Positions 2,491 to 48,929 of a stretch of DNA of 64,000 nt are shown here, piece by piece. This stretch comes from Escherichia phage FV3: the sequence record NC_019517.1, one strand, 5' to 3'. The notes beneath the pieces are model-generated. The model saw nothing but the letters and a program-made list of their open reading frames with translations, had not been told where the DNA came from and ran no database searches. A program made the translations under genes and the position numbers. The first letter of the stretch is position 1. The number at the start of each line of letters is the position of its first letter.

Positions 2491-2517
2491 AATAGAAAAT
2501 CCCCGCCGAAGCGGGGG
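2491..2517 (-). terminator. Rho-independent terminator (minus strand), CCCCGC-UUCG-GCGGGG hairpin plus U-tract
   Basis: Perfect 6-bp GC stem with UUCG tetraloop on the minus-strand transcript followed by ATTTTCTATTT; lies between the 126-aa gene and the SleB-like gene. Confidence 0.5.
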
Positions 2518-2529
2518 TGGTCTTAGAAA

Positions 2530-2910
2530 TTAGTCGTAGTGTGCCAGAATCTCTCCTTCGTTGCAAGTTCCCTCTACGAAGTTGTGAAGATTCCTGCATT
2601 CGTCTTGGTAGAAGAACTTACCACTTTTCAGCCGTAGACCAAACAACTCCGCATCTCCACGATGGCAAGCCTCTACAAGTTCATAGATTTCATACGGTAA
2701 CTCTCCATCGTCATGGAAGAACCCCGCTTTATCGTTGACATAGATGAAGAAATAGTCACTGCTGTCGCAAGCGTCCAATATTTTAAACCAGATTTCATCT
2801 ACATCTTTTTCTCGGATATCGATCACGCAAGTGGAGCTGCATTCGTACTCCTTCTCCGGCTCCTCGGTCAATACCACCAAGTAGTTTCCCCGCTTACCTA
2901 CTTTAGCCAT
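2530..2910 (-). CDS. Hypothetical acidic protein (126 aa)
   Basis: ORF in operon context; acidic composition; no recognisable motif. Confidence 0.4.
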   Translation of the reverse strand: MAKVGKRGNYLVVLTEEPEKEYECSSTCVIDIREKDVDEIWFKILDACDSSDYFFIYVNDKAGFFHDDGELPYEIYELVEACHRGDAELFGLRLKSGKFFYQDECRNLHNFVEGTCNEGEILAHYD

Positions 2911-2919
2911 ACAACCTCC

Positions 2920-4104
2920 TCAAGCTTTAGCTAAAATGGCGCTAAACTCTTCGCCAAACTCTTTTACAATCTTCATCAGGTTCGGGTATGCTTTGATCAG
3001 CTGAGCAACGATCTTGTCCCGGCCTTTACCAATAAGTAAGGCATTTCCTAGGGCGTTGGGTTTCATCATCGCCATAAAGACTGAGAATACAAAGTCTCGG
3101 TTCTCATCCTTGAAATTTTCCCAAAGGAAATCAAGGAAGTTTGCCACACAGCTGACAAGATCTTCGTCGGAGATACTTGCATTTTCCATCATGTTACGAA
3201 TAGCGATACACCCTTCAGACCCCAGAATCCACAAGATGTCTGGCTGCTTAGGCCCTACATACTCTTTGCAACCCCCTGCCATAATCCGACCGATTTCTGG
3301 CAAGTTTCGTTTCTTGGTGTGGTAGGTCCAGATTTCTACCGCTGCAGTGTGACCGATAGCACCTTGCAGAAGAACACGAGCCATAGCGTCAGAAATAATA
3401 CCGCTGTCAAAATCGTGCAGGATGTCAGATGCAGCAACCCAAGATCGCGGTGTAGCAAAAGCTGGACAATTAATCTCAGCCATGGCCTCATAATTATCGA
3501 TGGCTGATGGGACTCTTTTCAGATATCCAATTACCGAGGAGTGCACCCCATTAAGGAATGCATAGTCCTCAATAAACACCTCTGCATTGCTTGTAACTTC
3601 TACAATGATAAAGCGGTTAGCTAGAGGAGCTTCGAGCGCCGAAAGAACAGCACCGTCTGTAGCACGGTTACCTGCAGCTACAAAAACAGAGCCCTTAGGA
3701 AATGCATAGGTGCCGCACTTGTGGTCGAGCATAATTTGCATTGCAACCTTCTGCAGGTAGTTATCTGCATGAGTAAGCTCATCCAGAAAGATAATTCCGC
3801 TCCAGTTCGAGTCTGCAGGCCAAAATTCTGGAATTGCAAACACTGTGCGTGTAGTTCCATCTGCCTCTACAGGGATAGGTAGTCCAGATAAGTCAGCAGG
3901 ATCTTTATCTGACAGCCGCACGTCAACCAGGTTGTCATCTCGCTCACCGAACATATTATCAGCAATCTGCTTCATCACCTGACTCTTCCCCACACCCATC
4001 GGTCCTAAAATAAGAACAGATCGGTTATGACGCTGGGCAAATTGAATAATAGCTGGCAACTCGCGGACAGTGATTTGACCACTTTCGAATACGTTTCTTG
4101 ACAT
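2920..4104 (-). CDS. MoxR-like AAA+ ATPase (CobS/MoxR family, AAA_5-type)
   Basis: Walker A GPMGVGKS, Walker B IIFLDELTHAD, sensor AAGNRA; 394 aa with C-terminal extension. Confidence 0.7.
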   Translation of the reverse strand: MSRNVFESGQITVRELPAIIQFAQRHNRSVLILGPMGVGKSQVMKQIADNMFGERDDNLVDVRLSDKDPADLSGLPIPVEADGTTRTVFAIPEFWPADSNWSGIIFLDELTHADNYLQKVAMQIMLDHKCGTYAFPKGSVFVAAGNRATDGAVLSALEAPLANRFIIVEVTSNAEVFIEDYAFLNGVHSSVIGYLKRVPSAIDNYEAMAEINCPAFATPRSWVAASDILHDFDSGIISDAMARVLLQGAIGHTAAVEIWTYHTKKRNLPEIGRIMAGGCKEYVGPKQPDILWILGSEGCIAIRNMMENASISDEDLVSCVANFLDFLWENFKDENRDFVFSVFMAMMKPNALGNALLIGKGRDKIVAQLIKAYPNLMKIVKEFGEEFSAILAKA

Positions 4105-4373
4105 TAGTAAAAGTCCTCTACTTGTGTGTAAGTGTTTTCAAAGTTTTCCAAAACAGACATCACATCGGATCTGTCAATATCATACGCAACTCTCCAGCCA
4201 TATGCAACCCTTTCTGCTGTTGCCTCTTCTGGAGCTAGTCGTCTGCTGGCATAAAAGAGTGTTGGAGTACACTTTCTTGCTTGCCCTCTAACTTTCCCAT
4301 AATAATATCTGTGAATATCTTTGTCAAAATTTAATTCTTTTTCTGCACGAAGTTCGTACTGCTGGTATAACAT
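4104..4373 (-). CDS. Hypothetical protein (89 aa)
   Basis: ORF tightly packed in leftward early operon; 1-nt overlap with downstream gene. Confidence 0.4.
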   Translation of the reverse strand: MLYQQYELRAEKELNFDKDIHRYYYGKVRGQARKCTPTLFYASRRLAPEEATAERVAYGWRVAYDIDRSDVMSVLENFENTYTQVEDFY

Positions 4374-4417
4374 CTCTACTACTCCTTAAGCAGCATCCTT
4401 GCCGCCATCCCTACCCA

Positions 4418-4798
4418 CTAAAATGCAGTCCGAATCCAGACAAGGTTCTTATCTGCCCAATCATAGAGGCAAGTCATTGCACTATTGAATTGCTCACACG
4501 GAGGATAATCTTCTTCCATCTGGCGCATAGCAGAGCCTTGTGGGTAAAGCTCCCGTGCTGCAAACCACGCGTCGTAGTCATCAACGGTATCGAAGTAGTA
4601 TACAACATCCTCCAACTCAGGATCGAACTTTGAGCTATCAGGATTCAGTTGTTCAGGGAACTTGGAGCGTAACTTGCCAGCCACAATACTTGCCAACTCG
4701 CTAACATGCTTGTTGTCCCACTCTACCAGTTTCCCGTCTTCAGCTATGCGTCCTAACCACTGATCATGAAGGTCAACTGTTGTCTTCCACTGGGCCAT
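4418..4798 (-). CDS. Hypothetical protein (126 aa)
   Basis: ORF in operon context. Confidence 0.4.
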   Translation of the reverse strand: MAQWKTTVDLHDQWLGRIAEDGKLVEWDNKHVSELASIVAGKLRSKFPEQLNPDSSKFDPELEDVVYYFDTVDDYDAWFAARELYPQGSAMRQMEEDYPPCEQFNSAMTCLYDWADKNLVWIRTAF

Positions 4799-4800
4799 TA

Positions 4801-5058
4801 TCAGTTCACCTCTTCTTCTCGTTGCAGTTCAAGATACCCATAGGTCTGGATATCTTCAAGGGTGTGGAACTCTCCATCTGCTGCTAAGGCACGGACAACC
4901 TGGCATAGAGTTTTATAAGGTACTTTCTCCAAACCCAGATTCAGCGCAGGAAAAACCTTATCTAAGTCAACAAAATATACAAACTGTAGCTCACCAGTTT
5001 CAAAAGGCGTATCTTCGATAAACATCTTCTCGGCATTAGTCAAGATCTGCACTTTCAT
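4801..5058 (-). CDS. Hypothetical protein (85 aa)
   Basis: ORF in operon context. Confidence 0.4.
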   Translation of the reverse strand: MKVQILTNAEKMFIEDTPFETGELQFVYFVDLDKVFPALNLGLEKVPYKTLCQVVRALAADGEFHTLEDIQTYGYLELQREEEVN

Positions 5059-5435
5059 TATTCTACCCCCTCTTCTTTTTCTTCAGTATTAGTCTCAGTG
5101 CTACCCCACTCTGGAGTTTCCACCTCGATAGTAAACTCACGCACTACACGGTAATTGCCCATGAAGCGCTCCACTTCTTCAAGGCTTATGGAGAGGCCAT
5201 TGGCAACCAAGTCTGCAGCACCCTTCTCTACCAGGTAGTCCAGATTGGCTTCCAAGGCTTCAGGCTCAAACCCTGTCAATGCAATCATATAACCTTCCCC
5301 TTCATCAAGGAGGGCAATACAGCCCAACTGATTTTCTTTAAAAAAGCAGTGACCGTCATTATTGATTGGTTGTTCATTGCAGTAAATGGCTGCACGATAA
5401 GTGACTTTGGACATCGGTAAGGCCTCCTTAGGCAA
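5058..5435 (-). CDS. Hypothetical protein (125 aa; start may be at internal Met 8)
   Basis: ORF in operon context; overlapping stop/start junctions. Confidence 0.4.
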   Translation of the reverse strand: MPKEALPMSKVTYRAAIYCNEQPINNDGHCFFKENQLGCIALLDEGEGYMIALTGFEPEALEANLDYLVEKGAADLVANGLSISLEEVERFMGNYRVVREFTIEVETPEWGSTETNTEEKEEGVE

Positions 5436-6602: not shown

Positions 6603-6642
6603 GATTAAGTGCTCCTGTGTTCGTTTTCTTTCGAATGGGTGC

Positions 6643-14008: not shown

Positions 14009-14038
14009 TTATAAAAAGAAAGGGGCCAAACGGCCCCT
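14005..14038. terminator. Bidirectional rho-independent terminator between convergent early and late operons
   Basis: GGGGCC-AAAC-GGCCCC hairpin flanked by an A-tract upstream and a T-tract downstream. Confidence 0.6.
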
Positions 14039-14054
14039 TTTTATTTACCCCTTG

Positions 14055-19688: not shown

Positions 19689-19736
19689 TGTGTTCTCCAG
19701 ATAAGAAAACCGCCCCGTCAGGAGCGGTCAGATATA

Positions 19737-22814: not shown

Positions 22815-22901
22815 GTTCTCCTGAGAAAATTCCTTAAGGACTATTTTAACACTTTAGAGAACAAAATGCAAGAACGGCATCCTTGCCGTTCTGACCTTTG
22901 T

Positions 22902-29140: not shown

Positions 29141-29207
29141 GTCACTCCTCCGGTATGAAAATCTCTACAAGGTATTTTACCAAATTTTGTAACAATAGTC
29201 AATCTGA

Positions 29208-29238
29208 GCATAAAAATAAACCCCGCCGAAGCGGGGCT
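29208..29238 (-). terminator. Rho-independent terminator (minus strand), CCCCGC-UUCG-GCGGGG hairpin plus U-tract
   Basis: Same hairpin core as at 2501-2516; followed on the minus strand by TTTATTTTTAT; just downstream of the 1279-aa gene. Confidence 0.55.
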
Positions 29239-29245
29239 TTAAAGG

Positions 29246-32200: not shown

Positions 32201-33085
32201 ACAGTCCTCACTCAGTGTCATTGTTGCTGGGCCATAGTATGCACCTACCAGCAGACCATACTTACCAGCTACATAGCTAAGATCTGCACCACAAGCTTTC
32301 AGCATTTCTGCCATAATACTTGCTGGTGCTTCATCCGTGTCGAACTCACCATTAATGGTGTAACGACTCTCACTGGTTCCGTCTGCGTTTCTTACAGCCT
32401 CGTCGCATATGTTGGCAGCCTCCTTGAAGGACTCCCAGTTGATGGTTTCGTCAGGACATTTAAGGTATGTTCTTAAATAGTCCAGAATCACCAAGGCAGC
32501 GTTATTGGTATACACCTCTTTACTGGTGCGAGGATCATAGCATTTTTTACCAACCTTGATGAGTGTAACGTTTGGCAACCCAAAAGGGAACTTGTTAGGG
32601 TCAAACCTGAAGCTAACACGCAGCCAGCTGATCCCTCTACCTATCATGTCCGGTGACCACGATGGGCAGTGTGTACCCATGAAAGGATCAGAGGTTTTTC
32701 TGTCGTTATGTAGCTCCCACGATACCAAATCCCCATACGAGGAAATAGGATTACCGTCGATAAGTATATCTTCTATACCTTCCAGAGAGTGATTGGCAAG
32801 AACAATAGCACAATGAAGGGTTCTGTCTCTATCCTGCTCCAAAAACGCAAGCAATCCAGATGTGCGTGTCTTACCATACACTACAGAACAAGGTGCAGCA
32901 GAAGATCTAAGAAGCTTTTGCCTATCTTGCTGACTTCTGTAAGATTTGTTACCCTCGAAAATCTTATCCAGAGTTCTGGTGGTAACAGTGTTCAGGCTGT
33001 CAGCCAGAGCTGCCTTGGATGCGTTCCAGTCATAGCTTGAAGATCTTGCAGAAGCAACGATGTTATCAATCATTGCAATTGGCAT
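29246..33085 (-). CDS. Large tail fibre protein (1279 aa) with internal coiled-coil repeats and C-terminal beta-helix-like repeats
   Basis: Four degenerate TNKATTDLLN repeats; C-terminal G-x-F-(R/T)-G repeats. Confidence 0.5.
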   Translation of the reverse strand: MPIAMIDNIVASARSSSYDWNASKAALADSLNTVTTRTLDKIFEGNKSYRSQQDRQKLLRSSAAPCSVVYGKTRTSGLLAFLEQDRDRTLHCAIVLANHSLEGIEDILIDGNPISSYGDLVSWELHNDRKTSDPFMGTHCPSWSPDMIGRGISWLRVSFRFDPNKFPFGLPNVTLIKVGKKCYDPRTSKEVYTNNAALVILDYLRTYLKCPDETINWESFKEAANICDEAVRNADGTSESRYTINGEFDTDEAPASIMAEMLKACGADLSYVAGKYGLLVGAYYGPATMTLSEDCVCGEVKIYPEASFDKRSNTITGRFTSPTKGYSETDFPSVFVPEWVEKDGERKIIDIDYRFVTSPYQAQRVSAIFLRRARAGRIIEVTCNMRGFKFKPGRYVTMDLPSIGIVGQEMRVLEWEFTKKGGVKVKLRQDAKEWNDATGQLPDSGDVDIPVSPSGVAQPQNFRYSVLQAGEVTHGVLAWDNVGTYAQNIVQVRKNGEIIWTAQTVEQFVRVEGLTKGSYTATVVATSYKGGVSPEAYCEFNIQAPEAPVSVEVKQGYFAITLIPHSRDLASVSTQYDFWTSGMTRLPDTSDATVTSKATRMGVGSTWTSEGLQNDKIYYWYIRTTNAFGSSQFVECAARCYTSIEDLMPQIDAEFKKTETYKELMSTLDSSIEDVENRVTELNKYMDGRVDEAFQQLGDRIGAVVTDTTQKFEDVNGNITALDKKLVAAQNKFTNDLNTESGRLASLIETTNKATTDLLNKKTEALDEKLVAAKGELVEQIGGVESGYLAGDKTLDGKINTQRTELDASILSTNQATVDLLNRTSETLDQKISQTNATVSKNYTTLDGKITTAKTDLNTLIANTNKATTDLLNQKTSALSEQITSARGEISTNKQAIADLDGKLTSTKTALDATISDTNKATVDLINGTASAIRQELAVAKQEIIDDVGDVSELRAAVATTSKAVTDLEGKVNAQWGTKIQVDSAGNKYVAGIQLGMEGSGGQVQSYFMVSANNFAVYNPGNGTATLAFAIKNNQAFLKDAFIENGTISSAKIAQEISSNNYDGNGYHKYGWYINKNGHAQFMDVWVKGNINASAGNFTGAVNATSGTFRGDVYANNGSFRGTIDATGGTFRGRVEASVIRANQFEGAIVAHRTYGDCPPVYNSQQRVCRWRWRYVDNVSGQGKNVTFFFKLNGTLSGSQLNVWIAGHQILAGKKYGNDNNGMCAVGITGLGEQTIDIIVEIYTPWSTSSVTGVTISCPTVIVSRSNSSFQGPWNESHD
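30300..30860 (-). repeat. Four degenerate tandem DNA repeats (135-185 nt spacing) inside the 1279-aa fibre gene
   Basis: Core GATC(C/A)AC(A/T)GT(C/T)GC(C/T)T(T/G)(G/A)TTGGT recurs at about 30313, 30494, 30628 and 30814 on the plus strand, encoding TNKATTDLLN-type segments. Confidence 0.5.
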
Positions 33086-33522
33086 TAATACCTCCAGACA
33101 TCAACAACGATAGAATCTTTCATATCGAACGTAAAGATCCCTTTATCACCTTTCGCCCAAATCTGGTTGTTCCAGAACACACCAGCGGTGAGGCCGTTCA
33201 GACCTTCGAAAATAACAATATCACCACGCTGAACCTGTTTAGGAGTATCCAGTCGAGTCAAAAAGAGATCAAAAACAGTAGGCAGGTGTGTGGTTTTGAA
33301 ACGGAGCATGCACCATCTCTTGCTTTCCAACTCTGTTTTATACGTTCCTTCAAAGTTAGAAAGAAAATCTGTCCCGTATTGGGCATCAACACACTTAGCC
33401 GCAAAAGTGCAACAATCGTGGAATCCCCATTCAAACGGGACGGTGGCTTCTTCGTCAAATACTTTCCACAATTTTTCTTGCCAGTCTACTAAACGAGGGT
33501 GTGTGCTCATTAAACCTCCCAA
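33085..33522 (-). CDS. Hypothetical tail/baseplate-associated protein (145 aa)
   Basis: ORF in structural operon; overlapping junctions. Confidence 0.4.
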   Translation of the reverse strand: MGGLMSTHPRLVDWQEKLWKVFDEEATVPFEWGFHDCCTFAAKCVDAQYGTDFLSNFEGTYKTELESKRWCMLRFKTTHLPTVFDLFLTRLDTPKQVQRGDIVIFEGLNGLTAGVFWNNQIWAKGDKGIFTFDMKDSIVVDVWRY

Positions 33523-34076
33523 ATGATCGGGCGGCTCGCCACCTGATCCACATATTTAAAAAATCTGTCATTATCGTTTCTTGAGCTATGGCTTTCCTCT
33601 GTGTATCGGTAAGGAAAACCTCTTAACCAGCTGTTGAAGATGGAAGAGATGGATATGGACAAAGCACTATTCTCCCCTGTCTGAATAGCCATGTCCGTTA
33701 TAAGGCCGTCAAACAAGCCATTAGTTGTAACAGGCAAACCATTCTCCATAGCGGTGATATACAACGTGGCACGGCAACCAGAATACTCAGTCTTCAGAAG
33801 ATCACCTACATACTTGGGATCAAACCCGTTCAATGTTGCTACCACAGATCCGAAGTTGGTGGCATCTTTCTCAGACACAGCAGTCAATGTTGCTGATCCA
33901 CCTATCCCTATGAAATGTTGACCCTCAATCACTACAACACCAGTTCCTGAGCACACCCTGACAGTACCTGTTGGCAGCTCTAGCTTTGCAGCAATTAAGA
34001 TCTCAACACCATCAAGCTCTAGCTTTTCAAGAAATAAATTATCTAATGGCGCTCTTATCATCTTAGAAATCCTCAA
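33510..34076 (-). CDS. Hypothetical tail/baseplate-associated protein (188 aa)
   Basis: ORF in structural operon. Confidence 0.4.
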   Translation of the reverse strand: MRISKMIRAPLDNLFLEKLELDGVEILIAAKLELPTGTVRVCSGTGVVVIEGQHFIGIGGSATLTAVSEKDATNFGSVVATLNGFDPKYVGDLLKTEYSGCRATLYITAMENGLPVTTNGLFDGLITDMAIQTGENSALSISISSIFNSWLRGFPYRYTEESHSSRNDNDRFFKYVDQVASRPIIWEV

Positions 34077-34653
34077 AGAAGTTGATAACTATATTGTCAC
34101 CTTTCTGCATAGCATCAACCTTTTGCTTAATTTTATAAAGATCTCTGATATGAAATCTACCCTTCGGAGATTGAGTTATTATCTTCATGGTATCCCCTGC
34201 GGCAATAGGTTTCCTAAGTCTTGGAGATATGTTTATAACAGCAGCCCCAACACCATCGCTTCGTACTGAGGCTGTCACCACTTTCAACTCATCATTGACA
34301 GATATTTTATCCCCAGCTCTGGCTATATCCCTGTTAGGCTCCCAACCAACCGTCTTCAAAAAATCGTCGTTACCAGTCGGTCCGAGAGCGATTGGCTCGT
34401 TGGAGGTAACTGAATGCCCATAAGCCTTGATAAGAAAAATGTTCCCATCTTTGTAAACCTGATCAACAAAGCTTTTGAGCTCCAACAACTGAGACTCGCT
34501 GATATTGGAAACCGTCAAAGTGCCTTTCCAGTTAGGAGTGGCATAGGTGACTTTTTGCGTCTTACCTGTAAACGGGCTTTTAAATGTAACGATGTCTGCC
34601 AGTAACTCCAATCTAATATCTGGGAGGTATCTAGGCCTTTCCCATAAAAACAT
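34063..34653 (-). CDS. Hypothetical tail/baseplate-associated protein (196 aa)
   Basis: ORF in structural operon. Confidence 0.4.
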   Translation of the reverse strand: MFLWERPRYLPDIRLELLADIVTFKSPFTGKTQKVTYATPNWKGTLTVSNISESQLLELKSFVDQVYKDGNIFLIKAYGHSVTSNEPIALGPTGNDDFLKTVGWEPNRDIARAGDKISVNDELKVVTASVRSDGVGAAVINISPRLRKPIAAGDTMKIITQSPKGRFHIRDLYKIKQKVDAMQKGDNIVINFFEDF

Positions 34654-34711
34654 TGTGCCTCCAGGTTAAACAAATATGATAGTTATTTTACCAGATTTTA
34701 AGTTAATACGC

Positions 34712-34746
34712 AATACAAACAAAAAGCCCCCGCCGAAGCGAGGGCA
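34712..34746 (-). terminator. Rho-independent terminator (minus strand), GCCCUCGC-UUCG-GCGGGGGC hairpin plus U-tract
   Basis: Pairing is complete only on the minus-strand transcript (a U-G wobble where the plus strand has C-A); followed by TTTTTGTTTG. Confidence 0.5.
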
Positions 34747-34752
34747 AAACAG

Positions 34753-37700
34753 TTACTTCAATTTTCCTTGTAACTCGGTAACAACCTCTGTTAGTTTTTT
34801 AACCTGTTCCTCAAGGGAGGTTATTCTATCATCTTGTTCTCTGCAAACCTGAACAAGCAATCCTGTTACAGCCGCATAGTCAACATTATAGAATCTTTCC
34901 TCGGTCATCAGAGGAATACCATCTTGAGTAGGACCAGGAACCTCTTTCCTTTTCACGAAAGAACCAACAGCTTCAGGTAATGCTTCCATGACCTCTTGAG
35001 CAATTACCCCCGCGTGAGGCATACCATTCTCTTTTAGAGTGTAGGTATAGCCCTTCATCTTACGGATAGCTTCCAGCGCGTTAGGAATAACCTCTATGTT
35101 ATCCTTCAGGTCACGGTCAGAGCTCTGGCTGACAGCGGTGCACTCTACTACGCCGTTGACAGCAAGGTACCTTGACTTGGCCTCATCTGTCTTAGCACCA
35201 CAATGCCATACCCAACTGGCAGATGTAGCGTTGTCGTTTATCTGGAACTCAAGCACGTTCTTCCTGTCTGCGCCATTACCCCAGTAGTACATTCTGCCTG
35301 TATTAGAAGGCATGTTGGAAGTGTTGGTAACATCAGTCCCGCCACCTGTATGTATCATGAACTCCGGGTCAAGATTGGAGCCTGCGGTTTTAAGAGTAAT
35401 TCCCTTACCACCAAGCTGCTGCCAAGGTCCCCATGTGAAAACACTACCTATTGTTGTTCCATAACGCAGGAATTTTTCCCCAAGATATGATATATACTCC
35501 TGTACGCAACTCTCTGGAACATTGGCGTAGTTCCTATACACTATAAGCGTACCTGCTCGGGAGCATGGGTAGTTTCTATCAGGTGTGGCTTGAGCATTGG
35601 CCTCCTGATGATAAAAACCTTCCCTATCCCCTTTGTAGTCGTTAAGGTCATTAATCCCTAGACCTTGCCCTCTGTGTTGTATGACCTTGTTCCACGCTCT
35701 ATGGTTACCACCCTCGATAGATCTGGTGTATAACTGATCAAGGCGGCCAGCCATTTGGAAAGCATAGTTTCCAGAGAACGCCACAGACAGTCCACCAACA
35801 ACCATCGAGCCCTCTGGTCCGTTAACATTACCCGCCATTATTTTTGACGGGTTATTAGACCCAAACTGGTTGTTCCAGTCTCCACCAGTATGACATACAA
35901 AACCACCAGGGGCCGAGAAAGTACCGTCTTTGTTGAAATTGTAGAATCTGTGAGCTGTGCCCACAACATCGCGAACAATAACTTGACCAGCTTCTGGGGT
36001 AGATCTGAACTCTGCCTGACCTTTGAGGCCAGCACCATTACCGCATTTAGAGGTAAACGTACCGTTAGTTAGATCCTCTGTTCCATCTGATGCACACTGG
36101 AATCCTGCATTAGAGAATAACGCCTTTCTAGGGCTGCCATAGCACAAATAGTCAATACCGTCAGCCCATAGTTCGACTTTAGGCATGTTCATTTTGCTCA
36201 TCACCGCATAGCGTTCAGCAGTGCCTATATAGTGCCACTGTGTGCCGCCGCCAGTGTAGAACCCAGAGGTACCTTTGAAGTCAACAACAGGTCTGGTGTT
36301 GGTATTGTCATCTCCAAGAACAGCAAGATTCAAATCTGCTGACTGGAGAGGCGCAACAAACTTAACACCGTCCTGATTGTCTGTTACAGCTCCGACCTGG
36401 TAATCTTGCTCTCTGGTAAACACTTCTACAACATTTCTACTTGCGTATACGCTGATAGGGAAAGCACGAGCCTCTGCATAGAAAGCAACATACTCTTGTT
36501 TACCCCTTGTTGGAGCAACCATTCCAAGAAGTGCTTTTTCATTTTGATAGAAATTTACTACCCCGTAGAAAGAATCTCCTCTATCTGTCCAACCACCAGT
36601 TCTATAGTGACACTGCAAGGTGGCGCAGTTCATAGGGTCACCGCCGGATGACGATCTGGTAACTAGGGTAATATCAGTGCCAGTTGTTGGAGCATAGTAC
36701 GGATCTGTTCTAACGATGATTGGGTAGTATTTCCCATCTTCCATCCCTGCAGTTCTTGGCAGTGTTAAGAAATCTTTGACACCCGCAGCTATAGGAACTT
36801 TGAACAGATTCTGAGCATCTGCCAGGGTTGTAGCCCCAGTGCCACCTGCGGCTTGAGGTAAAGGTTCCCACTTGGCCTTCCGGTTGTTATAAACACCCCA
36901 TTCTAGAGTACCATTACCGGATTCATCCATACCGCCATCCCAGACGACCATCTTAGCGGCTTTCTTGGAACCCCAGAACCCTCTTTCTGCCCCTGAACTA
37001 CGAATCCATTCCCCAAGTCCCCAGTTTGTCAGCTGACCCGTGAGATCCCCGACCTGCATGTACTTAGGACAATCTAATACACCATCTTCACGGAATCCTA
37101 AATACCGATGAGTTTCAGATCCTTTTGCGCCTTTGTGCAGGTGGACTGTTAACCAAGTCTTATTGTCGTTTCTTACCTCGGAGTAGATCCTATACCCATG
37201 CTCAAGGACACCGTCAGCACTGTATTTGTCCCCGTTAACAATACCTGATGCCGACTTAACATCAGCAGAGCTTTGAGACAGGTAAAGGTGCCCGAAGGTA
37301 GGGGAATTTCTAGACCCAAGACCGATGTGCGATCTAAAAGTATCATCGTTACGAGGTCTGACCATTGGCTGCCATGCAGTCCACTGGTTTGTGTTGGCCT
37401 GATAGGTTCTTAAATACCAAACATCTACGTTAGAGAATGGATAGTATTCCTGACGACAGCCAGTGCCACCGTTAGCATTGTTCTGCCAAACAATCAAGTG
37501 ACCAGCACCAGAACCTGCAGGATAACCATTTGCCTCAGTTGCATTAGCTGTCATCGGCTGGTAGTATATGCCGTCCTGATTACCAGTCAAGTTATTGATA
37601 TTGAAATTTGCCTCAAGGGCTGCACGTTGCTTATAGAAAGCACCGATATTGATACGGACTCCAGCGGCATCTCTGGCTCCTGTACCGCCTTGCTCTATAG

Positions 37701-38553
37701 CAAGAGGTTGCCACGAGGCTGTTTGCTGGTTCCACATACCCCAACGGCCTGTTGCATCAAGCTGCAAGTACCCTGCCGTGTTTAAATCATCTCCAGCACG
37801 GATAACTGTTCTTGTTGGGTTGTTTGCCTCCAGGCGTTTAAATTCATCACGAAGTGCTATTCTTTTTGTTGTTGCTACACCGTTGGTTACTGCAATGGTA
37901 TACATGGCTCCAGAGGTAGCGCCACGGAAAATACCATCAACAGTCGTAGTATCACGACGAGATACCACACCGTTCAAAAATTTTTCACCAGCTGCTTCAG
38001 AAGGGTAGTTAGTAGTTCTTCCCTCTTCAATAACTGCAGGACCAACAAAGTTGACAAGGTGAATAACATCGCCTACAGTATGCACTGTACCAAAATCTAC
38101 CCGCTGTGCAAGTGCTTTAGCATCGTTGGCTGTCTGAACCGTAACATCCATTACATCCTGGACAGACTGCCCTTCGGCTGTCATGATCATAGATGCGCCA
38201 ATGGTAGACTCCAACTCCTCCCTTAAGGACGGGTCTGTATATACCATCCATGCAGCATCAGTAATCCCACCATCAGAGTACGGTGAAGACAGTGCAGGCA
38301 CAGTGTGTGGAAATTCGCCTTTCCAACGCAGGTAGAGGTCTTCCTCTTCGAAGTAGGCAAAATCCATTGGGCCGTTTAACTTACCACCTTCCTTAAAGGA
38401 GATTACATGAGAAACAGTCCCATCCACATGGACAACATCGCCAATTTTTACACGACGGGTCAGGTCTGGTTGTTGAACAACCAGGTAATCATCCTCTGTC
38501 ACTGCGGTAGTGGCAGGAAGAGATTCAATTCTGACAACTTTAATATCAGCCAT
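34753..38553 (-). CDS. Long tail fibre (1266 aa) with phage-fibre repeats and C-terminal intramolecular chaperone (peptidase S74-like) domain
   Basis: Repeated W-x-P-L...GGTGA motifs; C-terminal DLKDNIEVIPNALEAIRKMKGYTYTLKENGMPHAGVIAQEV typical of the auto-cleaving chaperone domain; conserved N-terminal anchor region. Confidence 0.65.
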   Translation of the reverse strand: MADIKVVRIESLPATTAVTEDDYLVVQQPDLTRRVKIGDVVHVDGTVSHVISFKEGGKLNGPMDFAYFEEEDLYLRWKGEFPHTVPALSSPYSDGGITDAAWMVYTDPSLREELESTIGASMIMTAEGQSVQDVMDVTVQTANDAKALAQRVDFGTVHTVGDVIHLVNFVGPAVIEEGRTTNYPSEAAGEKFLNGVVSRRDTTTVDGIFRGATSGAMYTIAVTNGVATTKRIALRDEFKRLEANNPTRTVIRAGDDLNTAGYLQLDATGRWGMWNQQTASWQPLAIEQGGTGARDAAGVRINIGAFYKQRAALEANFNINNLTGNQDGIYYQPMTANATEANGYPAGSGAGHLIVWQNNANGGTGCRQEYYPFSNVDVWYLRTYQANTNQWTAWQPMVRPRNDDTFRSHIGLGSRNSPTFGHLYLSQSSADVKSASGIVNGDKYSADGVLEHGYRIYSEVRNDNKTWLTVHLHKGAKGSETHRYLGFREDGVLDCPKYMQVGDLTGQLTNWGLGEWIRSSGAERGFWGSKKAAKMVVWDGGMDESGNGTLEWGVYNNRKAKWEPLPQAAGGTGATTLADAQNLFKVPIAAGVKDFLTLPRTAGMEDGKYYPIIVRTDPYYAPTTGTDITLVTRSSSGGDPMNCATLQCHYRTGGWTDRGDSFYGVVNFYQNEKALLGMVAPTRGKQEYVAFYAEARAFPISVYASRNVVEVFTREQDYQVGAVTDNQDGVKFVAPLQSADLNLAVLGDDNTNTRPVVDFKGTSGFYTGGGTQWHYIGTAERYAVMSKMNMPKVELWADGIDYLCYGSPRKALFSNAGFQCASDGTEDLTNGTFTSKCGNGAGLKGQAEFRSTPEAGQVIVRDVVGTAHRFYNFNKDGTFSAPGGFVCHTGGDWNNQFGSNNPSKIMAGNVNGPEGSMVVGGLSVAFSGNYAFQMAGRLDQLYTRSIEGGNHRAWNKVIQHRGQGLGINDLNDYKGDREGFYHQEANAQATPDRNYPCSRAGTLIVYRNYANVPESCVQEYISYLGEKFLRYGTTIGSVFTWGPWQQLGGKGITLKTAGSNLDPEFMIHTGGGTDVTNTSNMPSNTGRMYYWGNGADRKNVLEFQINDNATSASWVWHCGAKTDEAKSRYLAVNGVVECTAVSQSSDRDLKDNIEVIPNALEAIRKMKGYTYTLKENGMPHAGVIAQEVMEALPEAVGSFVKRKEVPGPTQDGIPLMTEERFYNVDYAAVTGLLVQVCREQDDRITSLEEQVKKLTEVVTELQGKLK

Positions 38554-38588: not shown

Positions 38589-41186
38589 TTAAAGGTACAA
38601 TCCACGGTATTGAGCATAAAGTCCCAGACCGCGAAGGATTTCGCCAGAGTGATAGCCTACCGGATCAGAAACTGCCCAGCAGCCGTTTAAAACATTATCC
38701 CCGTTAATGAAGTGGTGCTTTTGCAGTAACTTCACACAGGCTTCTACAACAATATCTATTTGAGGTATTGTCTCTGAATACCCGCAAAGACCTAGCCAGC
38801 AGCAACCTGCAAGCCATTCACCTACCACCCACATCCTGTCACCTCTGTCTTGATAAGAATATCCTCCTGAGGTGTTAAAGTCTGTAGGGAGATTTCCGGA
38901 ATGAGATGACTGGAATCTGTTGAGGAACCATGCCCATTTCTGGCAGAACAGGAACAGTCTTTCGTCAACAGGTTCTTTATGTTTCTTAAGCTCATATAGT
39001 GTGCGGCACGCAGCAACAAAGGCTCTTGATTGGAGTTTAGAGTTATCTACCATCTCCCACCAACCAGTCAACCCTTCATTACCCCTCTGCCATACGTAGC
39101 GGGATGCAACTGGTCCTTCTGTTTTAAATGTGTTATTATACCAAACTTGGGAGTCGTACATAAATCCAATTGTATTTGCCAATCTTTGACGATCTATGTT
39201 TTCCGCACCCATACAGTAGACTACCGGATATTGCATTCCGGGATAGGGCCAATTTGGCCTTTCCTCTAGAAGATAATTTTCCTTATCTATCACCTTTCCG
39301 GCAGGGAACACACCTGGAGTGTGTCTGTATGCGCCTTGCTTGTAGTTTCTGACATAGCAATCACCAACCTTGGCGGTTGATTCTGTCTTGCTTGCCATCC
39401 ATACACTAAACCAGATCAGATAAGCATCTCTATCTGCAACATAAAATTGCGGCAGCGTGTTGACGCAATACAGATCGAACAAGCCATTGCCTATCTGCCT
39501 GTCGCTCAGACTGAAATCTACAGAGGTAATTCCTTTAGGGTTGGCAAAGAAAGGTTTAATCTCATCTTCTGTGTGATGAGGTTGTGTTGGATCTAGTTTA
39601 AAATCCCCTAGGGTAAGAGTTTCTGTTATCCATTGTCCGTTAGTGGCATATAGATCAGCATACCATAACCAACGGTCTTTGTCAAGAAATTTGACCCTTA
39701 CCATCTCATCATCTGATCGATAAGTTACTGAGTTTAAAGAAATCTCTCTTCCAAAATTGAAAGTTACTTTGCCTCTTACTATGTTGCAACGGGTGAAGTT
39801 GTCGGAGTGGTTGTAAATGTCGGTATCATACTGCATACTAACACTAGCGCCACCGCTTACGGCAATGTTTTCCTCTTTTGGCAAGAGATACGGGTTACCG
39901 TCTTTACCAACCACCTCTACGAAATCAGTAACTTTGGCAACTGTCTCTGTTACTTCTGACCCTCCAAAAGGGACCCCTATCCTATACTGTTTTTTGTTAT
40001 TGTTGCCATCATTAAGGATGAAATGTGGCTGGAACAGAACCCCCTCTCCTCCGAAATTCATAACAATTTCAGCATCTCTGCCTATCTTGTATGTAGTCCC
40101 TTTTTGGATTATTTCGCAAGGCTGGCGTGCGTTCATTCTAAAATTGATATACCCGTCGCTGTCCCTACTCATGACAGGAACTGTTCCTGCAACGAGACAA
40201 GTACCATCTGTGAACGGTGCCTTAATCAACGTGGTCTTTCTAAACAACTTGTCGTAGGCATTTATATCACTGAAATTAAGCAACTTGTTGTAAGACTGTT
40301 TAAACGCTGTGTAATACTTTTCCTCGCCTGTCAAAGTGTAGAGTTGATAACAAGCGTCACACCACATTTCTTCCCCGTCCAACTCTGGGGCTTGATTGTC
40401 TGCAACCACATTTATAGGGTTTACAATTACAGGGGATCCAGCAGGTATCACCGATCCACCCTGCTCTTGTGGCAATCTCACACAGTAGGTTACTTTGTGG
40501 CTGCCTGTAACACCCTTATCCTGCAGTTGGATTGTGCCGAACTCTGCAGACGTATGACCACTGTCGGCTATGCTACCGTTGGCCCAATAGCGGTTACCAT
40601 CCCATGCTATATACCACTCAACCCACCAACTCAATCCAGATGTTGTCCAATTTGGGTTAGCATCTGTGCCGCCGTAAACATCAGAGTCTACAGTGTTTCT
40701 TCCTAGCACACCGTTATACGCTTGGAATGCCTTGTCTAGGTATTCACCCCATGTCGGAGATCCAGCTGGGATTTTTCCTCTACCGTTGGTAAAAGACACC
40801 ACTACATCTTTAAACCCACCATGTGATGGAACCCCGTCTGTGGATAATGGGTAGTGGGACAATCTTTGCATTTTACTTTCTACTGCATATGCACCCAGAA
40901 GGTGACTGTTGTAGGCTTCCCAAGCTTCTTTGGCCCTATCTAGATAAAAATCGCTTTTCGATGCCCTGTATGCTTCAATGTATCCCAGAATCAACACAGC
41001 TTGAGCTTCATGCATTGCCCAATCATTATTTATCTTACTCCCTGACCAACCTGACGCTATAAGTCCATCCTGGTTTACCAGTTTGTTCTGCGTGGGGAGA
41101 TTGGTAATGCCTGTGTTATTATCGAGGCACTTCCTGTGCCCCTCAATCATCTGAAATACGTTATCAATATTGTGTTGAATACGCAT
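38589..41186 (-). CDS. Large tail-associated protein (865 aa), possible glycan-degrading tailspike body
   Basis: Trp/Tyr-rich enzyme-like composition; starts 1 nt after the stop of the anchor-domain gene. Confidence 0.4.
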   Translation of the reverse strand: MRIQHNIDNVFQMIEGHRKCLDNNTGITNLPTQNKLVNQDGLIASGWSGSKINNDWAMHEAQAVLILGYIEAYRASKSDFYLDRAKEAWEAYNSHLLGAYAVESKMQRLSHYPLSTDGVPSHGGFKDVVVSFTNGRGKIPAGSPTWGEYLDKAFQAYNGVLGRNTVDSDVYGGTDANPNWTTSGLSWWVEWYIAWDGNRYWANGSIADSGHTSAEFGTIQLQDKGVTGSHKVTYCVRLPQEQGGSVIPAGSPVIVNPINVVADNQAPELDGEEMWCDACYQLYTLTGEEKYYTAFKQSYNKLLNFSDINAYDKLFRKTTLIKAPFTDGTCLVAGTVPVMSRDSDGYINFRMNARQPCEIIQKGTTYKIGRDAEIVMNFGGEGVLFQPHFILNDGNNNKKQYRIGVPFGGSEVTETVAKVTDFVEVVGKDGNPYLLPKEENIAVSGGASVSMQYDTDIYNHSDNFTRCNIVRGKVTFNFGREISLNSVTYRSDDEMVRVKFLDKDRWLWYADLYATNGQWITETLTLGDFKLDPTQPHHTEDEIKPFFANPKGITSVDFSLSDRQIGNGLFDLYCVNTLPQFYVADRDAYLIWFSVWMASKTESTAKVGDCYVRNYKQGAYRHTPGVFPAGKVIDKENYLLEERPNWPYPGMQYPVVYCMGAENIDRQRLANTIGFMYDSQVWYNNTFKTEGPVASRYVWQRGNEGLTGWWEMVDNSKLQSRAFVAACRTLYELKKHKEPVDERLFLFCQKWAWFLNRFQSSHSGNLPTDFNTSGGYSYQDRGDRMWVVGEWLAGCCWLGLCGYSETIPQIDIVVEACVKLLQKHHFINGDNVLNGCWAVSDPVGYHSGEILRGLGLYAQYRGLYL

Positions 41187-41187
41187 C

Positions 41188-41856
41188 TTAGATAGCTCCT
41201 GCGATAATCAGTGCCCCGTACCAAGTTAACCCGTTGTCGTAGGTTTCTAACTTGAAAATATCTGTTGCACCAGCTGTAAATGTTAGGATAGGATCTCTTC
41301 CGTATGCCCATTTAACATTATCAGGCCAATAGACTTTGTTGCCGCCAGATGTCTGAGTAATGCATACGGTTATAGTTCTCGCCACCCCTTCAAGACCTTC
41401 TGTTTGATTCTCAAAAGAGATCGTGGTATTTGAAGTTAGTCGAACTTTAAAAGTGTCAGCAACTTCAAGATCCATATCAAGCTGACCACCAATAGACCCG
41501 TAATCAACTATTCTACCAGAAGAAGTTGCAGCAAGCTCTCCAAAAACAGACCAGGCTTTTGCAGACACACCCCCAGCACCCTCTACAGTAGAGTCTGGGA
41601 GGATTATTTTAGGATAATCCCCGTTCCACGTGTAGTAGCGCTTGGTCTCTGGGTCATAAGCAAAGTCCTTCTTGCTCTTAAGATAACCACCCTCTGTGAA
41701 ATAGACTATTTTAGTAATGCTGAGATCGTTGACAACATCGTCAATCTTAGCCTTTCTTGTCCCATCAGTCTGATTGACAACCAAGAAGTCATCACTCAGG
41801 ACTGTTTCTGCATCTTCAAGATCTGGAATTGGTATTGTAGGATAAGCTACAGCCAT
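41188..41856 (-). CDS. Tail fibre anchor/adaptor-domain protein (222 aa)
   Basis: N-terminus IPDLEDAETVLSDDFLVVNQTDGTRKAKIDDVV...FTEGGYLKSKKDFAY parallels the N-terminus of the 1266-aa fibre. Confidence 0.5.
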   Translation of the reverse strand: MAVAYPTIPIPDLEDAETVLSDDFLVVNQTDGTRKAKIDDVVNDLSITKIVYFTEGGYLKSKKDFAYDPETKRYYTWNGDYPKIILPDSTVEGAGGVSAKAWSVFGELAATSSGRIVDYGSIGGQLDMDLEVADTFKVRLTSNTTISFENQTEGLEGVARTITVCITQTSGGNKVYWPDNVKWAYGRDPILTFTAGATDIFKLETYDNGLTWYGALIIAGAI

Positions 41857-41865
41857 GATTTCTCC

Positions 41866-42582
41866 TTAGTTAACATCAATAGCACGACCAGACTGGTTGG
41901 CAATAGCCTCATCATTAGAGGTGGCAATAACACCAGAGTATTCGCGCTCATCTGGAGCAAGCGTCCAGGTATTGCGGTTAATGGTTTGTTCTGCCTCGGT
42001 CATCAGCAGATCTTTATCCTGAGTCAACAGAGAGCCTACAGGGATCGGGTTTTCCATCTCAGGACCAGCATACTGGTTCCACCATGTGGCATCCCCGGTT
42101 CTAGGTAATCTAAAGTTGATCAGGTAGTACAGTTTATTAGCCCACTTAATCCAACCTTCATCATCACAGAGAGAGGTTGTCCCGGCATCAGGCTGTGGAT
42201 AGGTAAACTGATCAAGACCTACGAAAGCAAGTCTTACAATCTCGTTCTCCTTGGTAACAACCTCAAAGAACGCTTGATATGTTCTCGATCTTCGATCCAT
42301 AGTAGATTGGAAGTTTATGATGTTTAGCACATCCGGCTCTTGTCTTGCCACTTCCATAATCTTGTTATCAAGAACAGTCTTCATGACCTTCTTGCTAAGA
42401 AAGTCCATATAAGGGAAGCCAAACAACTCATCAAAGTACCAGCTCCCTTTCCAGGTATTAAACCTCATCCACAGGCGCTGGCGCAGACTTACTTGGTTTG
42501 AGTCTATCAACTTAAGACCTTTGTCTATCGCCAAATCACCTGTCTGTGGGTCCATCAATATATCACTATAAAGCGTAGCCAT
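41866..42582 (-). CDS. Putative baseplate protein (238 aa)
   Basis: Position between spike and fibre genes. Confidence 0.35.
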   Translation of the reverse strand: MATLYSDILMDPQTGDLAIDKGLKLIDSNQVSLRQRLWMRFNTWKGSWYFDELFGFPYMDFLSKKVMKTVLDNKIMEVARQEPDVLNIINFQSTMDRRSRTYQAFFEVVTKENEIVRLAFVGLDQFTYPQPDAGTTSLCDDEGWIKWANKLYYLINFRLPRTGDATWWNQYAGPEMENPIPVGSLLTQDKDLLMTEAEQTINRNTWTLAPDEREYSGVIATSNDEAIANQSGRAIDVN

Positions 42583-42594
42583 GCAAGCCCTCTA

Positions 42595-45574: not shown

Positions 45575-45611
45575 CTAAATATTGTATCATAAAATAGCCG
45601 TTTTTACAACA

Positions 45612-45641
45612 CCGATAAAATAAAGGGGGCCAGAGCCCCCT
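45612..45641 (-). terminator. Candidate terminator/attenuator hairpin downstream of the tape measure gene
   Basis: GGGGGC-N4-GCCCCC hairpin followed on the minus strand by TTTATTTTATC. Confidence 0.4.
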
Positions 45642-45653
45642 GTGTGCTGTTTA

Positions 45654-47993: not shown

Positions 47994-48000
47994 GCTTTCC

Positions 48001-48043
48001 TCATAATAAAAAGGGCCAGATCCCAGAAAAGGAATCCGGCCCT
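48001..48043 (-). terminator. Terminator-like 10-bp hairpin plus U-tract between chaperone and tape measure genes
   Basis: AGGGCCGGAU...AUCUGGCCCU stem on the minus-strand transcript followed by TTTTTATTATGA. Confidence 0.35.
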
Positions 48044-48047
48044 TAGA

Positions 48048-48296
48048 TTATCCTCTCCTGCGCTTAGCTTTCGCAGCAGCTGCGGCAGCCTTCTGCTCCC
48101 GCTCCATTTCCCTGTTTTGGACGGTATCTAGGAATTCTTCGATATCAAGATACTCACAGAGCTTCAGGAAATACGCCATATCTGCAAGATTTAGCGATTC
48201 AAAATTTTCCCCTTTGAAATTCTTGAGCACCCTGCACCAAAGAAAGTCGAACCAGTTGAGTGAACTGTTCTTGGCTGCCCACTCACTGGCCCTCAC
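48048..48296 (-). CDS. Tail assembly chaperone -1 frameshift extension (GT-like product, C-terminal part)
   Basis: ORF in the -1 frame relative to 48308-48781; that frame opens 3 codons upstream of a UUUUUUC slippery heptamer. Confidence 0.45.
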   Translation of the reverse strand: MRASEWAAKNSSLNWFDFLWCRVLKNFKGENFESLNLADMAYFLKLCEYLDIEEFLDTVQNREMEREQKAAAAAAKAKRRRG

Positions 48297-48307
48297 AACA
48301 ACCTTGC

Positions 48308-48781
48308 TTATTCCTGCTCTTCCGGAGTCTGATCCAGATTGTTCACCTGCTGAATCATACCCATCTGCTGTAACATCTCCAGAAGGCTTCCTAAACCGTC
48401 TTGTGTGAAAAAACAGCCGTAGTTAACCTCCAGAACCTTACCTGCCAGCTTAATCATCTCCAGCAGATGCCCTGCAAACACAACATCAGGGTTAAGCTTA
48501 TCCACACCATCCACGGTAATATCTTCGAACAAGATTTTAAATAACTCTTCGATAGAGTTATCATCAAGTTCTTGGAACAGGTAAGCCAGGGCTGTAGGAA
48601 GGACCTCTGCCATATTCTGACCGCCTGAGAGAATAGATCCACCGATAGCACCTAGCGGGACAGCTACAATCTTACCGATTTTAGGCATGTTTTTCATTGC
48701 TTTCATCGGTCCCCAGTGGGTGATCACAAAGTTGTGCCCTGCTAAATCAATCTCTGTTGTAGGTCTAAAGTTTATAGCCAT
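48308..48781 (-). CDS. Tail assembly chaperone (G-like, 157 aa)
   Basis: Position between tail tube and tape measure; contains a slippery site near the 3-prime end. Confidence 0.5.
   Translation of the reverse strand: MAINFRPTTEIDLAGHNFVITHWGPMKAMKNMPKIGKIVAVPLGAIGGSILSGGQNMAEVLPTALAYLFQELDDNSIEELFKILFEDITVDGVDKLNPDVVFAGHLLEMIKLAGKVLEVNYGCFFTQDGLGSLLEMLQQMGMIQQVNNLDQTPEEQE
48407..48413 (-). other. Candidate programmed -1 ribosomal frameshift slippery heptamer U_UUU_UUC
   Basis: Minus-strand TGT TTT TTC at codons 123-125 of the chaperone; -1 frame open from here to the stop at 48048. Confidence 0.45.
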
Positions 48782-48892
48782 TTTATAGCATCCTTATTAG
48801 TCATGTTGTGCACCATATTTGTGTATTTTACCATGATTATGGTGCATTGTCAATTTAACCTTTCAAGCAATTCAAGAACGTGTGTCAAAACC

Positions 48893-48929
48893 ATAAAAGC
48901 AAAAAGCCCCACCCGAAGGTGAGGCCTAT
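48893..48929 (-). terminator. Rho-independent terminator downstream of the tail tube gene
   Basis: GCCUCACC-UUCG-GGUGGGGC hairpin followed by TTTTTGCTTTTAT on the minus strand. Confidence 0.5.

Follow-up and report, generated by a model that had tools for sequence, protein, structure and literature searches.

The window analysed here comprises the first 64 kb (64,000 nucleotides) of record NC_019517.1, the genome of Escherichia phage FV3, an rV5-like Vequintavirus of E. coli. Four hairpins with a C-UUCG-G loop were confirmed in this window, all on the minus strand and each behind a leftward gene (Table 1). Site 4 lies 16 nt past the stop codon of the tail tube gene, sites 3 and 2 lie 7 and 6 nt past those of the two giant lateral tail fibre genes (1266 aa, rV5 ORF41, and 1279 aa, rV5 ORF37, respectively), and site 1 lies 13 nt past that of ORF3, which encodes a hypothetical protein of 126 aa in a separate non-structural leftward unit. 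Site 1 precedes the SleB hydrolase and rIIA genes: the GTG start codon of the SleB-like gene is 20 nt further on, its RBS begins 9 nt from the end of the hairpin and no promoter lies between hairpin and gene. The first-pass annotation had located the hairpins after the tube gene and the giant fibre genes, which is right for sites 4, 3 and 2 but not for site 1. Its coordinates hold for sites 1–3, whereas the interval that it gave for site 4 (48907–48928) is 4 nt too wide for the core, CCUCACC-UUCG-GGUGGGG, which spans 48907–48924.

Table 1. Terminator-like hairpins and restart promoters in the 64-kb window (positions counted from its first base; stems given as RNA).
Feature	Coordinates	Strand	Sequence features	Context	rV5 counterpart
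Site 1	2501–2516	−	CCCCGC-UUCG-GCGGGG, 6 bp, all G-C; tract AUUUUCUAUUU at 2490–2500		t003
Bidirectional terminator	14019–14040	.		end of the leftward late region, facing converging rightward genes	
Non-UUCG terminator	19708–19729	−	loop UGAC	after ORF28; ORF27 start 19 nt on	t028
Non-UUCG hairpin	22871–22892	−	followed by TGTTAAAAT (rV5 P030)	after ORF31	
Promoter after site 2	29174–29202	−	TTGACT-17-TAAAAT with TGG; TGGTAAAAT at 29174–29182		P036
Site 2	29218–29239	−	AAGCCCCGC-UUCG-GCGGGGUUU, 9 bp; core CCCCGC-UUCG-GCGGGG at 29221–29236		
Promoter motif after site 3	34685–34693	−	TGGTAAAAT	32 nt on; upstream of ORF40	P040
Site 3	34726–34745	−	GCCCUCGC-UUCG-GCGGGGGC, 8 bp, one U.G; then UUUUUGUUUGU		t041
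Post-tape-measure terminator	45624–45641	−	AGGGGGC-UCUG-GCCCCCU		t049
Non-UUCG hairpin	48011–48044	−	14 bp	17 nt ahead of tape measure start; no promoter behind	t050
Promoter after site 4	48825–48853	−	TTGACA-17-TAAAAT with TGG	upstream of tail assembly chaperone gene	P051
Site 4	48904–48927	−	AGGCCUCACC-UUCG-GGUGGGGCUU, 10 bp, two wobbles		t052
Non-UUCG terminator	53911–53933	−		after major capsid gene; next start codon 34 nt on	t060
Non-UUCG hairpin	58479–58500	−	loop UAACAC	upstream of 518-aa ORF 56891–58447	t064ABC

The stems (6, 9, 8 and 10 bp for sites 1–4) and the 4-nt loops fall within the dimensions of intrinsic terminators (stems of 5–14 bp, loops of 3–8 nt), as does the placement of the hairpins shortly behind a co-oriented gene, and the energies of the hairpins alone range from −12.0 to −16.5 kcal/mol. 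As had been noticed at first reading, a U-tract follows each hairpin on the minus-strand transcript: at least five T are present within the 8 nt past the stem at all four sites, and the plus strand has no comparable T-tract. The tract reads (UUU)AUUUUUAU at site 2 and UUUUUGCUUUUAU at site 4 (UUUGCUUUUAU after the full 10-bp stem); the weakest is that of site 1, which is interrupted and begins with A. Two of the hairpins had also been said to contain wobbles that pair only in the minus-strand RNA, and we recovered one such U.G pair in site 3 and one in the core of site 4, both C.A on the plus strand; the second wobble of site 4 sits in the extended stem and is likewise C.A there. RNA folding of minus versus plus strand gave −16.5 and −12.9 kcal/mol for site 2, −16.9 and −12.4 for site 3, and −22.1 and −14.7 for site 4. 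Only site 1 folds better as plus-strand RNA (minus −14.0, plus −17.3 kcal/mol), because an extra U.G pair forms in the plus-strand RNA alone.

Recurrence of GC stems with UUCG loops, the central observation of the first-pass annotation, was borne out for all four hairpins. Hairpins that combine a TTCG loop and a T-tract with at least 6 bp of stem number four on the minus strand of the window and zero on the plus strand, and 300 dinucleotide shuffles gave a mean of 0.047 and a maximum of one for the same definition. That we are looking at functionless GC-rich palindromes coinciding by chance is a vanishingly improbable explanation. It could draw on the weak enrichment of the degenerate pattern SSSSTTCGSSSS (2 observed versus 0.36 expected), but this pattern caught only two sites because the stems of sites 3 and 4 contain A/U, and a stem-aware scan replaced it for enrichment and site calling. 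Every site lies on the coding-strand side, all four are intergenic and directly past stop codons, and the hairpins are kept across genomes; this conservation and the excess over the shuffles refute the chance reading. The four sites also rank among the top ones in a terminator scan of the window. A T-tract weighting modelled on that of d'Aubenton Carafa served for ranking only. At the gathering threshold, Rfam matched tRNAs only in the window and nothing at the four sites.

Within the genus, the hairpins of sites 1–4 vary at 0 of 16, 1 of 22 (among nine genomes), 0 of 20 and 2 of 25 columns, so that the comparison across related phages proposed with the initial observation came out in favour of conservation. 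The spacers between stop codon and hairpin vary at 3 of 13, 3 of 6, 0 of 7 and 7 of 16 columns, respectively. A natural variant of site 4 keeps the pairing (G.U to A-U), and the UCCG loop found at site 3 in one contig still belongs to the UNCG class. At site 2, one natural contig carries UUAG in place of UUCG, and the exact UUCG loop is therefore probably dispensable. Since scans of IMG/VR with the ORF36 and SleB proteins retrieved only three close relatives and only two, respectively, sites 1–3 were compared through annotated GenBank regions instead. In other genera, the same gene junctions carry terminators whose stems and loops differ (UUCG, UCCG, GAAA and others), and the spacer between the tube and chaperone genes of Seunavirus, Mydovirus and Certrevirus contains a conserved hairpin with a weak U-tract and no promoter. 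Taken together, the strand-specific wobbles, the U-tracts, the location 6–16 nt past stop codons and the conservation within the genus argue, as the first reading of the sequence had suggested, for a function in the minus-strand orientation.

These four hairpins are already known as predicted terminators in rV5-like phages and do not constitute a new kind of element. Sites 1, 3 and 4 correspond to t003, t041 and t052, predicted with ARNold and MFOLD in rV5 (Table S4 of Kropinski et al. 2013, Virol J 10:76; PMC3606486); t003 has the same coordinates in rV5 as here (2490–2516) and an identical sequence. The rV5 table omits site 2 (after ORF37), whereas the record of phage HdK5 (vB_EcoM_HdK5, MK373780) carries terminator features for the orthologues of sites 2–4. 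The elements in both sources are orthologous to ours, identical or nearly so, located at the same gene junctions and all predicted; neither the rV5 paper nor the HdK5 record comments on their UUCG loops collectively.

An exact copy of the extended −10 late-promoter motif TGGTAAAAT is present within 32–70 nt past each of sites 2–4, with an additional −35 box, TTGAC(A/T), at two of these three promoters and a second TTGACA behind site 4 at about 48883–48888. They are the published rV5 promoters P036, P040 and P051, which lie directly behind sites 2–4 (PMC3606486 Table S4); P036 is predicted to drive the baseplate gene ORF36 in rV5. Sigma70-like promoters occur genome-wide in rV5, and it was suggested that host holo-RNA polymerase might not undergo modification in this phage (PMC3606486). 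A literature search for Vequintavirus transcriptome or RNA 3′-end data found none. We infer from sequence the actual termination at the four sites, its efficiency and the activity of the promoters.

Our preferred reading, to which we give a probability of about 0.85, is that the four elements are canonical Rho-independent terminators that act on leftward transcripts of the host E. coli RNA polymerase. The GC stem with its very stable C(UUCG)G tetraloop would fold in the nascent RNA and pull the weak rU:dA hybrid of the U-tract, releasing the transcript, and the hairpin would then keep exonucleases off the 3′ end of the freed mRNA. Because promoters are found 32–70 nt past sites 2–4, the end of a unit followed by a restart is the simplest reading of these three sites. 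Sites 4, 3 and 2 would close successive late units ending in the tube gene and the fibre genes ORF41 and ORF37, respectively, and the late promoter TGGTAAAAT, accompanied or not by a −35 box, would restart the next block. This agrees with the unit layout proposed for rV5-like phages, in which terminator-promoter junctions follow the tube gene and two giant fibre genes. Site 1 would be a leaky terminator inside the rIIA-proximal unit, devoid of restart promoter. Since there is no room for a promoter before the next gene, the genes downstream of site 1 need read-through, and judging by its 6-bp stem, its interrupted U-tract and the essential-looking promoterless genes that follow, site 1 cannot be an efficient stop.

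The first-pass annotation had favoured graded attenuation or RNA stabilization over simple operon ends. Such elements, located inside long late operons, would be mostly read through, lower downstream expression stepwise and protect the upstream tube and fibre messages from 3′ exonucleases. This proposal is plausible for site 1, which is necessarily read through and stands promoterless 20 nt ahead of the next start, but is not supported for sites 2–4 on account of the promoters behind them, and as an account of the four sites together we regard it as rather unlikely. The conserved TGGTAAAAT promoters would be needless if read-through fed the downstream genes, the long stems and good U-tracts of sites 3 and 4 are typical of efficient terminators, and a step-down would suit the stoichiometry past the tube gene, whereas past the fibre genes it has no obvious rationale. 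In its favour, the tube-chaperone hairpin of Seunavirus, Mydovirus and Certrevirus is promoterless, so that it cannot be a full stop there, and other phages offer documented cases of partial termination and of attenuation (PMC10914365).

The other hairpins of the window bear on the same question. Eleven strong minus-strand terminator hairpins (ΔG ≤ −12) were found, four of which are of the UUCG type, and a restart promoter is lacking at five of them: site 1 and four non-UUCG hairpins, one near a portal-region ORF, one behind the capsid gene, one ahead of the tape measure gene and one behind ORF28. These five also speak for attenuation. Several promoterless non-UUCG hairpins imply that read-through must occur often here, and leakiness may extend to the UUCG sites. 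The late region could even work through programmed read-through, with a phage-controlled change in termination (for example antitermination) setting the ratios of virion proteins; the UUCG hairpins would then be regulated attenuators and not fixed stops, but we consider this improbable. For the reading as terminators, the present list separates those with a restart promoter from those needing read-through and could be of use for term-seq design or for fibre-module engineering in these therapeutic phages. Outside annotation, its significance is small.

The hairpins had also been presented as a special family sharing near-identical cores, a view that did not survive comparison. Beyond the hairpin and promoter motif, the four sites showed no similarity to one another, and their flanks are unrelated. 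The exact 16-mer CCCCGC-TTCG-GCGGGG is generic, occurring in at least 120 unrelated viral contigs of 33–67% GC, and among the matches listed, 99 of 122 copies have a T-tract behind the 16-mer in the UUCG orientation. The identity of sites 1 and 2 over this 16-mer had made them candidates for a duplicated element, which was rejected since the 16-mer is so widespread in the viral contig collection. On this comparison, the four hairpins are not a family by descent, and their common UUCG core would reflect convergence on the most stable of small hairpins.

Promoter-early stem-loop (PeSL) cassettes are said to recur in T4-type phages, and the sites resemble them in having a stem-loop adjoining a promoter motif that recurs between gene modules. 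By analogy, the four sites could derive from a single DNA cassette, repeated or mobile and made up of stem-loop and promoter, that spreads or mediates recombination of tail-fibre modules. Consistent with this, sites 1 and 2 share the 16-mer, sites 1–3 share CGCTTCGGCGGGG, AAAAT-N-TGGTAAAATA is found 32–35 nt past the hairpin at both sites 2 and 3, the neighbouring fibre-gene ends are less conserved than the spacers, and in JEP1 the spacer of site 4 contains, downstream of its hairpin, a 1.6-kb insertion. However, copies of PeSL have extended stretches of sequence in common and sit at the recombination junctions of hyperplastic early regions, whereas the sites described here have only functional motifs in common and lack the sequence shared beyond minimal motifs that defines REP- or PeSL-like cassettes. 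Furthermore, the 16-mer is a common terminator in unrelated viral contigs, at one and the same junction stems vary from genus to genus but the features that define function are retained, and the strand-specific wobbles point to selection on RNA and not on DNA. A cassette origin is thus very unlikely.

The terminator reading has close precedents. UUCG loops have been known in terminators since 1988–1990 and are classic for E. coli and T4, with C(UUCG)G hairpins reported from intercistronic regions of T4 and from intrinsic terminators of E. coli. The four hairpins resemble both in their C-G-closed UUCG, their GC stem, their U-tract and their setting in a coliphage relying on host polymerase; nothing material differs except the lineage, here Vequintavirus. 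In T7, the leaky terminator T-phi follows the major structural gene 10. Site 4 similarly lies right after a virion gene with very high expression, here the tube gene, with less abundant products encoded downstream, but T7 brings a polymerase of its own and depends on read-through, whereas here a restart promoter comes next and the polymerase is presumably that of the host. UUCG is over-represented among terminator tetraloops according to work cited in PMC3972237; a literature search for an openly readable paper quantifying it gave secondary citations only. In phiKZ, a conserved terminator motif with a particular stem and a TTAT tail is present in 61 copies mapped by ONT-cappable-seq (PMC10914365). 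Both cases involve an intrinsic-terminator hairpin recurring in one genome, with partial read-through shaping transcription units; however, the phiKZ motif is phage-specific and experimentally mapped, whereas the hairpins described here are generic and predicted from sequence. The post-tape-measure terminator belongs to the same series as the four sites; its loop, UCUG here, is UCCG (UNCG class) in four relatives and UUCG in Seunavirus, Mydovirus, Certrevirus and phi92.

Reading the minus strand confirmed all four UUCG hairpins placed there by the first-pass annotation, and this observation is correct and non-random. Every loop is UUCG with a closing C-G pair and every hairpin is followed by the expected U-rich tract on the minus-strand transcript; the sole slip in coordinates concerns the last site, whose quoted core spans 48907-48924 and not 48907-48928. 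The wobble pairs said to form only in minus-strand RNA are indeed U.G pairs at sites 3 and 4, where plus-strand RNA would have C.A mismatches. Minus-strand RNA folds more stably than plus-strand RNA at sites 2 (-16.5 vs -12.9 kcal/mol), 3 (-16.9 vs -12.4 kcal/mol) and 4 (-22.1 vs -14.7 kcal/mol). This order is reversed at site 1 (minus -14.0 vs plus -17.3 kcal/mol) because the plus-strand fold gains a U.G pair that minus-strand RNA lacks, a stability without obvious meaning since no U-tract lies on that side. A stem-aware scan of the window (TTCG loop, stem of at least 6 bp, T-tract) found four such hairpins, all of them on the minus strand, compared to a mean of 0.047 and a maximum of 1 in 300 dinucleotide shuffles; the recurrence is therefore real, and chance is excluded. 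The UUCG sites make up 4 of the 11 strong terminator hairpins of the minus strand.

These elements have already been described. The genome of Escherichia phage rV5 (DQ832317) is colinear with the window from base 1, and its published Table S4 lists as Rho-independent terminators, predicted with ARNold and MFOLD, t003 (CCCCGCTTCGGCGGGG, 2490-2516), t041 (GCCCTCGCTTCGGCGGGGGC) and t052 (GCCTCACCTTCGGGTGGGGC), besides two more UUCG terminators, t109 and t122, on the opposite strand elsewhere in that genome (PMC3606486). In GenBank, phage HdK5 has the orthologues of sites 2, 3 and 4 annotated as 'terminator' features, so that both sources jointly cover all four sites. The elements are thus already annotated, and the association of UUCG with terminators is textbook knowledge. 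An Rfam search at the four hairpin positions returned no family.

The virion genes, among them those for the major capsid, sheath and tube, the chaperones, the tape measure, the baseplate and several lateral tail fibres, occupy a long stretch of leftward genes between about 60 and 14 kb. The location claimed for the hairpins, after the tube and giant fibre genes, holds for sites 2-4 and not for site 1, which, with ORF3, lies in a separate leftward unit running into SleB and rIIA. The minus strand of the window holds five exact copies of the motif TGGTAAAAT. Three lie past a hairpin, at 35 nt (site 2), 32 nt (site 3) and 70 nt (site 4), and a TTGAC(T/A) box lies 17 nt upstream of two of these three. 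They correspond to the rV5 promoters P036, P040 and P051, and TggTAaAAtA was proposed as the late-promoter consensus of this phage (PMC3606486). Given this order of promoters and terminators, the late region can be read as a series of consecutive units. Sites 2-4 are predicted ends of units followed by restarts, the opposite of the earlier proposal of attenuation or RNA-stability elements "rather than simple operon ends".

Features of the region and of compared loci (coordinates of the window unless a locus is named)
Feature	Coordinates	Strand	Remarks
rIIA	1-1983		
SleB-like hydrolase	1980-2480		
Site 1	2501-2516	minus	13 nt past ORF3, small hypothetical gene
Bidirectional terminator	14019-14040		
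Site 2	29218-29239	minus	6 nt past ORF37 stop
ORF37	29246-33085	minus	lateral tail fibre, 1279 aa
Site 3	34726-34745	minus	7 nt past ORF41 stop
ORF41	34753-38553	minus	lateral tail fibre, 1266 aa
Post-tape-measure terminator	45624-45641		loop UCUG
Site 4 (full stem)	48904-48927	minus	16 nt past tube gene stop
Tube gene	48944-49417	minus	
Late unit from P051			chaperones, tape measure gene; to terminator
Late unit from P048			baseplate genes, ORF41; to site 3
Late unit from P040			ORF40-37; to site 2
Late unit from P036			ORF36-31; to terminator
Late unit from P030			ORF30-27; to bidirectional terminator at 14 kb
Nested post-tube hairpin, tube-chaperone spacer	L003 20478-20515; L004 20480-20520; L005 15594-15630; IMG/VR loci L015-L031		

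Among the explanations considered, ordinary intrinsic termination has the best support; host RNA polymerase would stop at the four hairpins and each hairpin may also cap the released mRNA, protecting its 3′ end. For other phages, there is good documentation of partial termination (PMC10914365). As a reading of the four sites together, attenuation or mRNA stabilization is rather improbable: the restart promoters speak against it at sites 2-4, and it is required at site 1 only. There, the distance from the hairpin end to the downstream start codon of SleB is 20 nt, and that to its GGAG ribosome-binding site 9 nt, so that any SleB message must cross the hairpin. Four hairpins without a UUCG loop likewise precede a start codon by 17-34 nt: one near 58.5 kb, one past the capsid gene, one ahead of the tape measure gene and one past ORF28. 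Such positions clearly point to read-through in the FV3 genome, for which the UUCG sites other than site 1 are not the best candidates. The hairpin before the tape measure gene (48011-48044; 14 bp, -25.6 kcal/mol, poor U-tract) must be read through because it lies 17 nt before the gene start; a hairpin is also kept at this junction in phages SSE121, KB57 and DU_PP_IV. Near 58.5 kb (58479-58546), a promoter-like TTGCCA-17-TAGAAT with TGG (rV5 P064) lies directly upstream of a terminator-like hairpin (58479-58500), and predicted transcripts would start about 10 nt ahead of it.

The 28000-36000 region shares 97.7% identity with phage EPFV3-03/2025 and 91-94% with about 110 further Vequintavirus genomes. 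In alignments of up to nine Vequintavirus genomes and contigs, variable columns at sites 1-4 amount to 0/16, 1/22, 0/20 and 2/25 in the hairpins and to 3/13, 3/6, 0/7 and 7/16 in the stop-to-hairpin spacers; upstream gene ends show 6/45, 9/48 and 5/37. The outer stem of site 4 switches from G.U to A-U, and one metagenomic contig carries both loop changes, UUCG to UCCG (site 3) and UUCG to UUAG (site 2). In a sister group (88% tube identity), the post-tube hairpin AGGCCACC-UUCG-GGUGGCCU has the same loop and a different stem; at this junction, Seunavirus, Mydovirus and Certrevirus have GCCAC-N6-GUGGC before a weak U-tract, and phi92 has a GAAA-loop terminator. The post-tape-measure terminator, with loop UCUG in the window, has a UUCG loop in SSE121, KB57, DU_PP_IV and phi92, which represent four other genera, and a UCCG loop (UNCG class) in the close relatives rV5, HdK5, JohannBauhin and YP-6; in a terminator ahead of the baseplate-wedge gene, the loop is UUCG in SSE121, UCCG in KB57 and UCU in DU_PP_IV. 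The conserved trait is therefore that a given junction holds a terminator, whose stem and loop turn over; these comparisons suggest that UNCG loops are strongly preferred during this turnover.

The four hairpins do not form a family by descent, their spacers sharing nothing beyond the hairpin and the promoter motif, and their spread as a mobile cassette is unlikely. Sites 1 and 2 share an exact 16-mer (CCCCGC-UUCG-GCGGGG) that at least 120 unrelated contigs of IMG/VR, of 33-67% GC, also carry, and a T-tract follows it in the UUCG orientation in 99 of 122 occurrences among the matches listed. It is probably a generic terminator hairpin, used convergently. This reading fits older knowledge on C(UUCG)G hairpins, which have long been described as being of exceptional stability and as frequent both in the intercistronic regions of T4 and in the terminators of E. 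coli, findings attributed to Tuerk (1988) and d'Aubenton Carafa (1990), as cited in PMC3972237.

Other features were noted. The GCCAC-N6-GUGGC hairpin of Seunavirus-, Mydovirus- and Certrevirus-like phages lies inside an outer helix with covariation (CGUGU..ACACG vs CGUGA..UCACG), and its inner stem is GUCAC..GUGAC in one contig; with a weak U-tract and no promoter after it, it is probably a conserved structured RNA, not a plain terminator. The bidirectional terminator has a 4-nt loop reading AAAC on the plus strand of the window vs GTTT in rV5, HdK5, JohannBauhin, YP-6 and JEP1, with identical 9-bp stems, a difference that amounts to an inversion (flip) of the loop. In JEP1 (MT740314), the stretch 40794-42594, orthologous to window ~48782-48943, contains an insertion of about 1.6 kb that encodes JEP1_014, a 540-aa hypothetical protein, and separates the tube terminator from the chaperone gene's TGGTAAAAT promoter. 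Finally, within the tRNA cluster, ARAGORN predicted at 61446-61544 a tRNA-like gene of 99 nt whose anticodon has four bases (atcc) and which scores as a weak tRNA in Rfam (35.5 bits).
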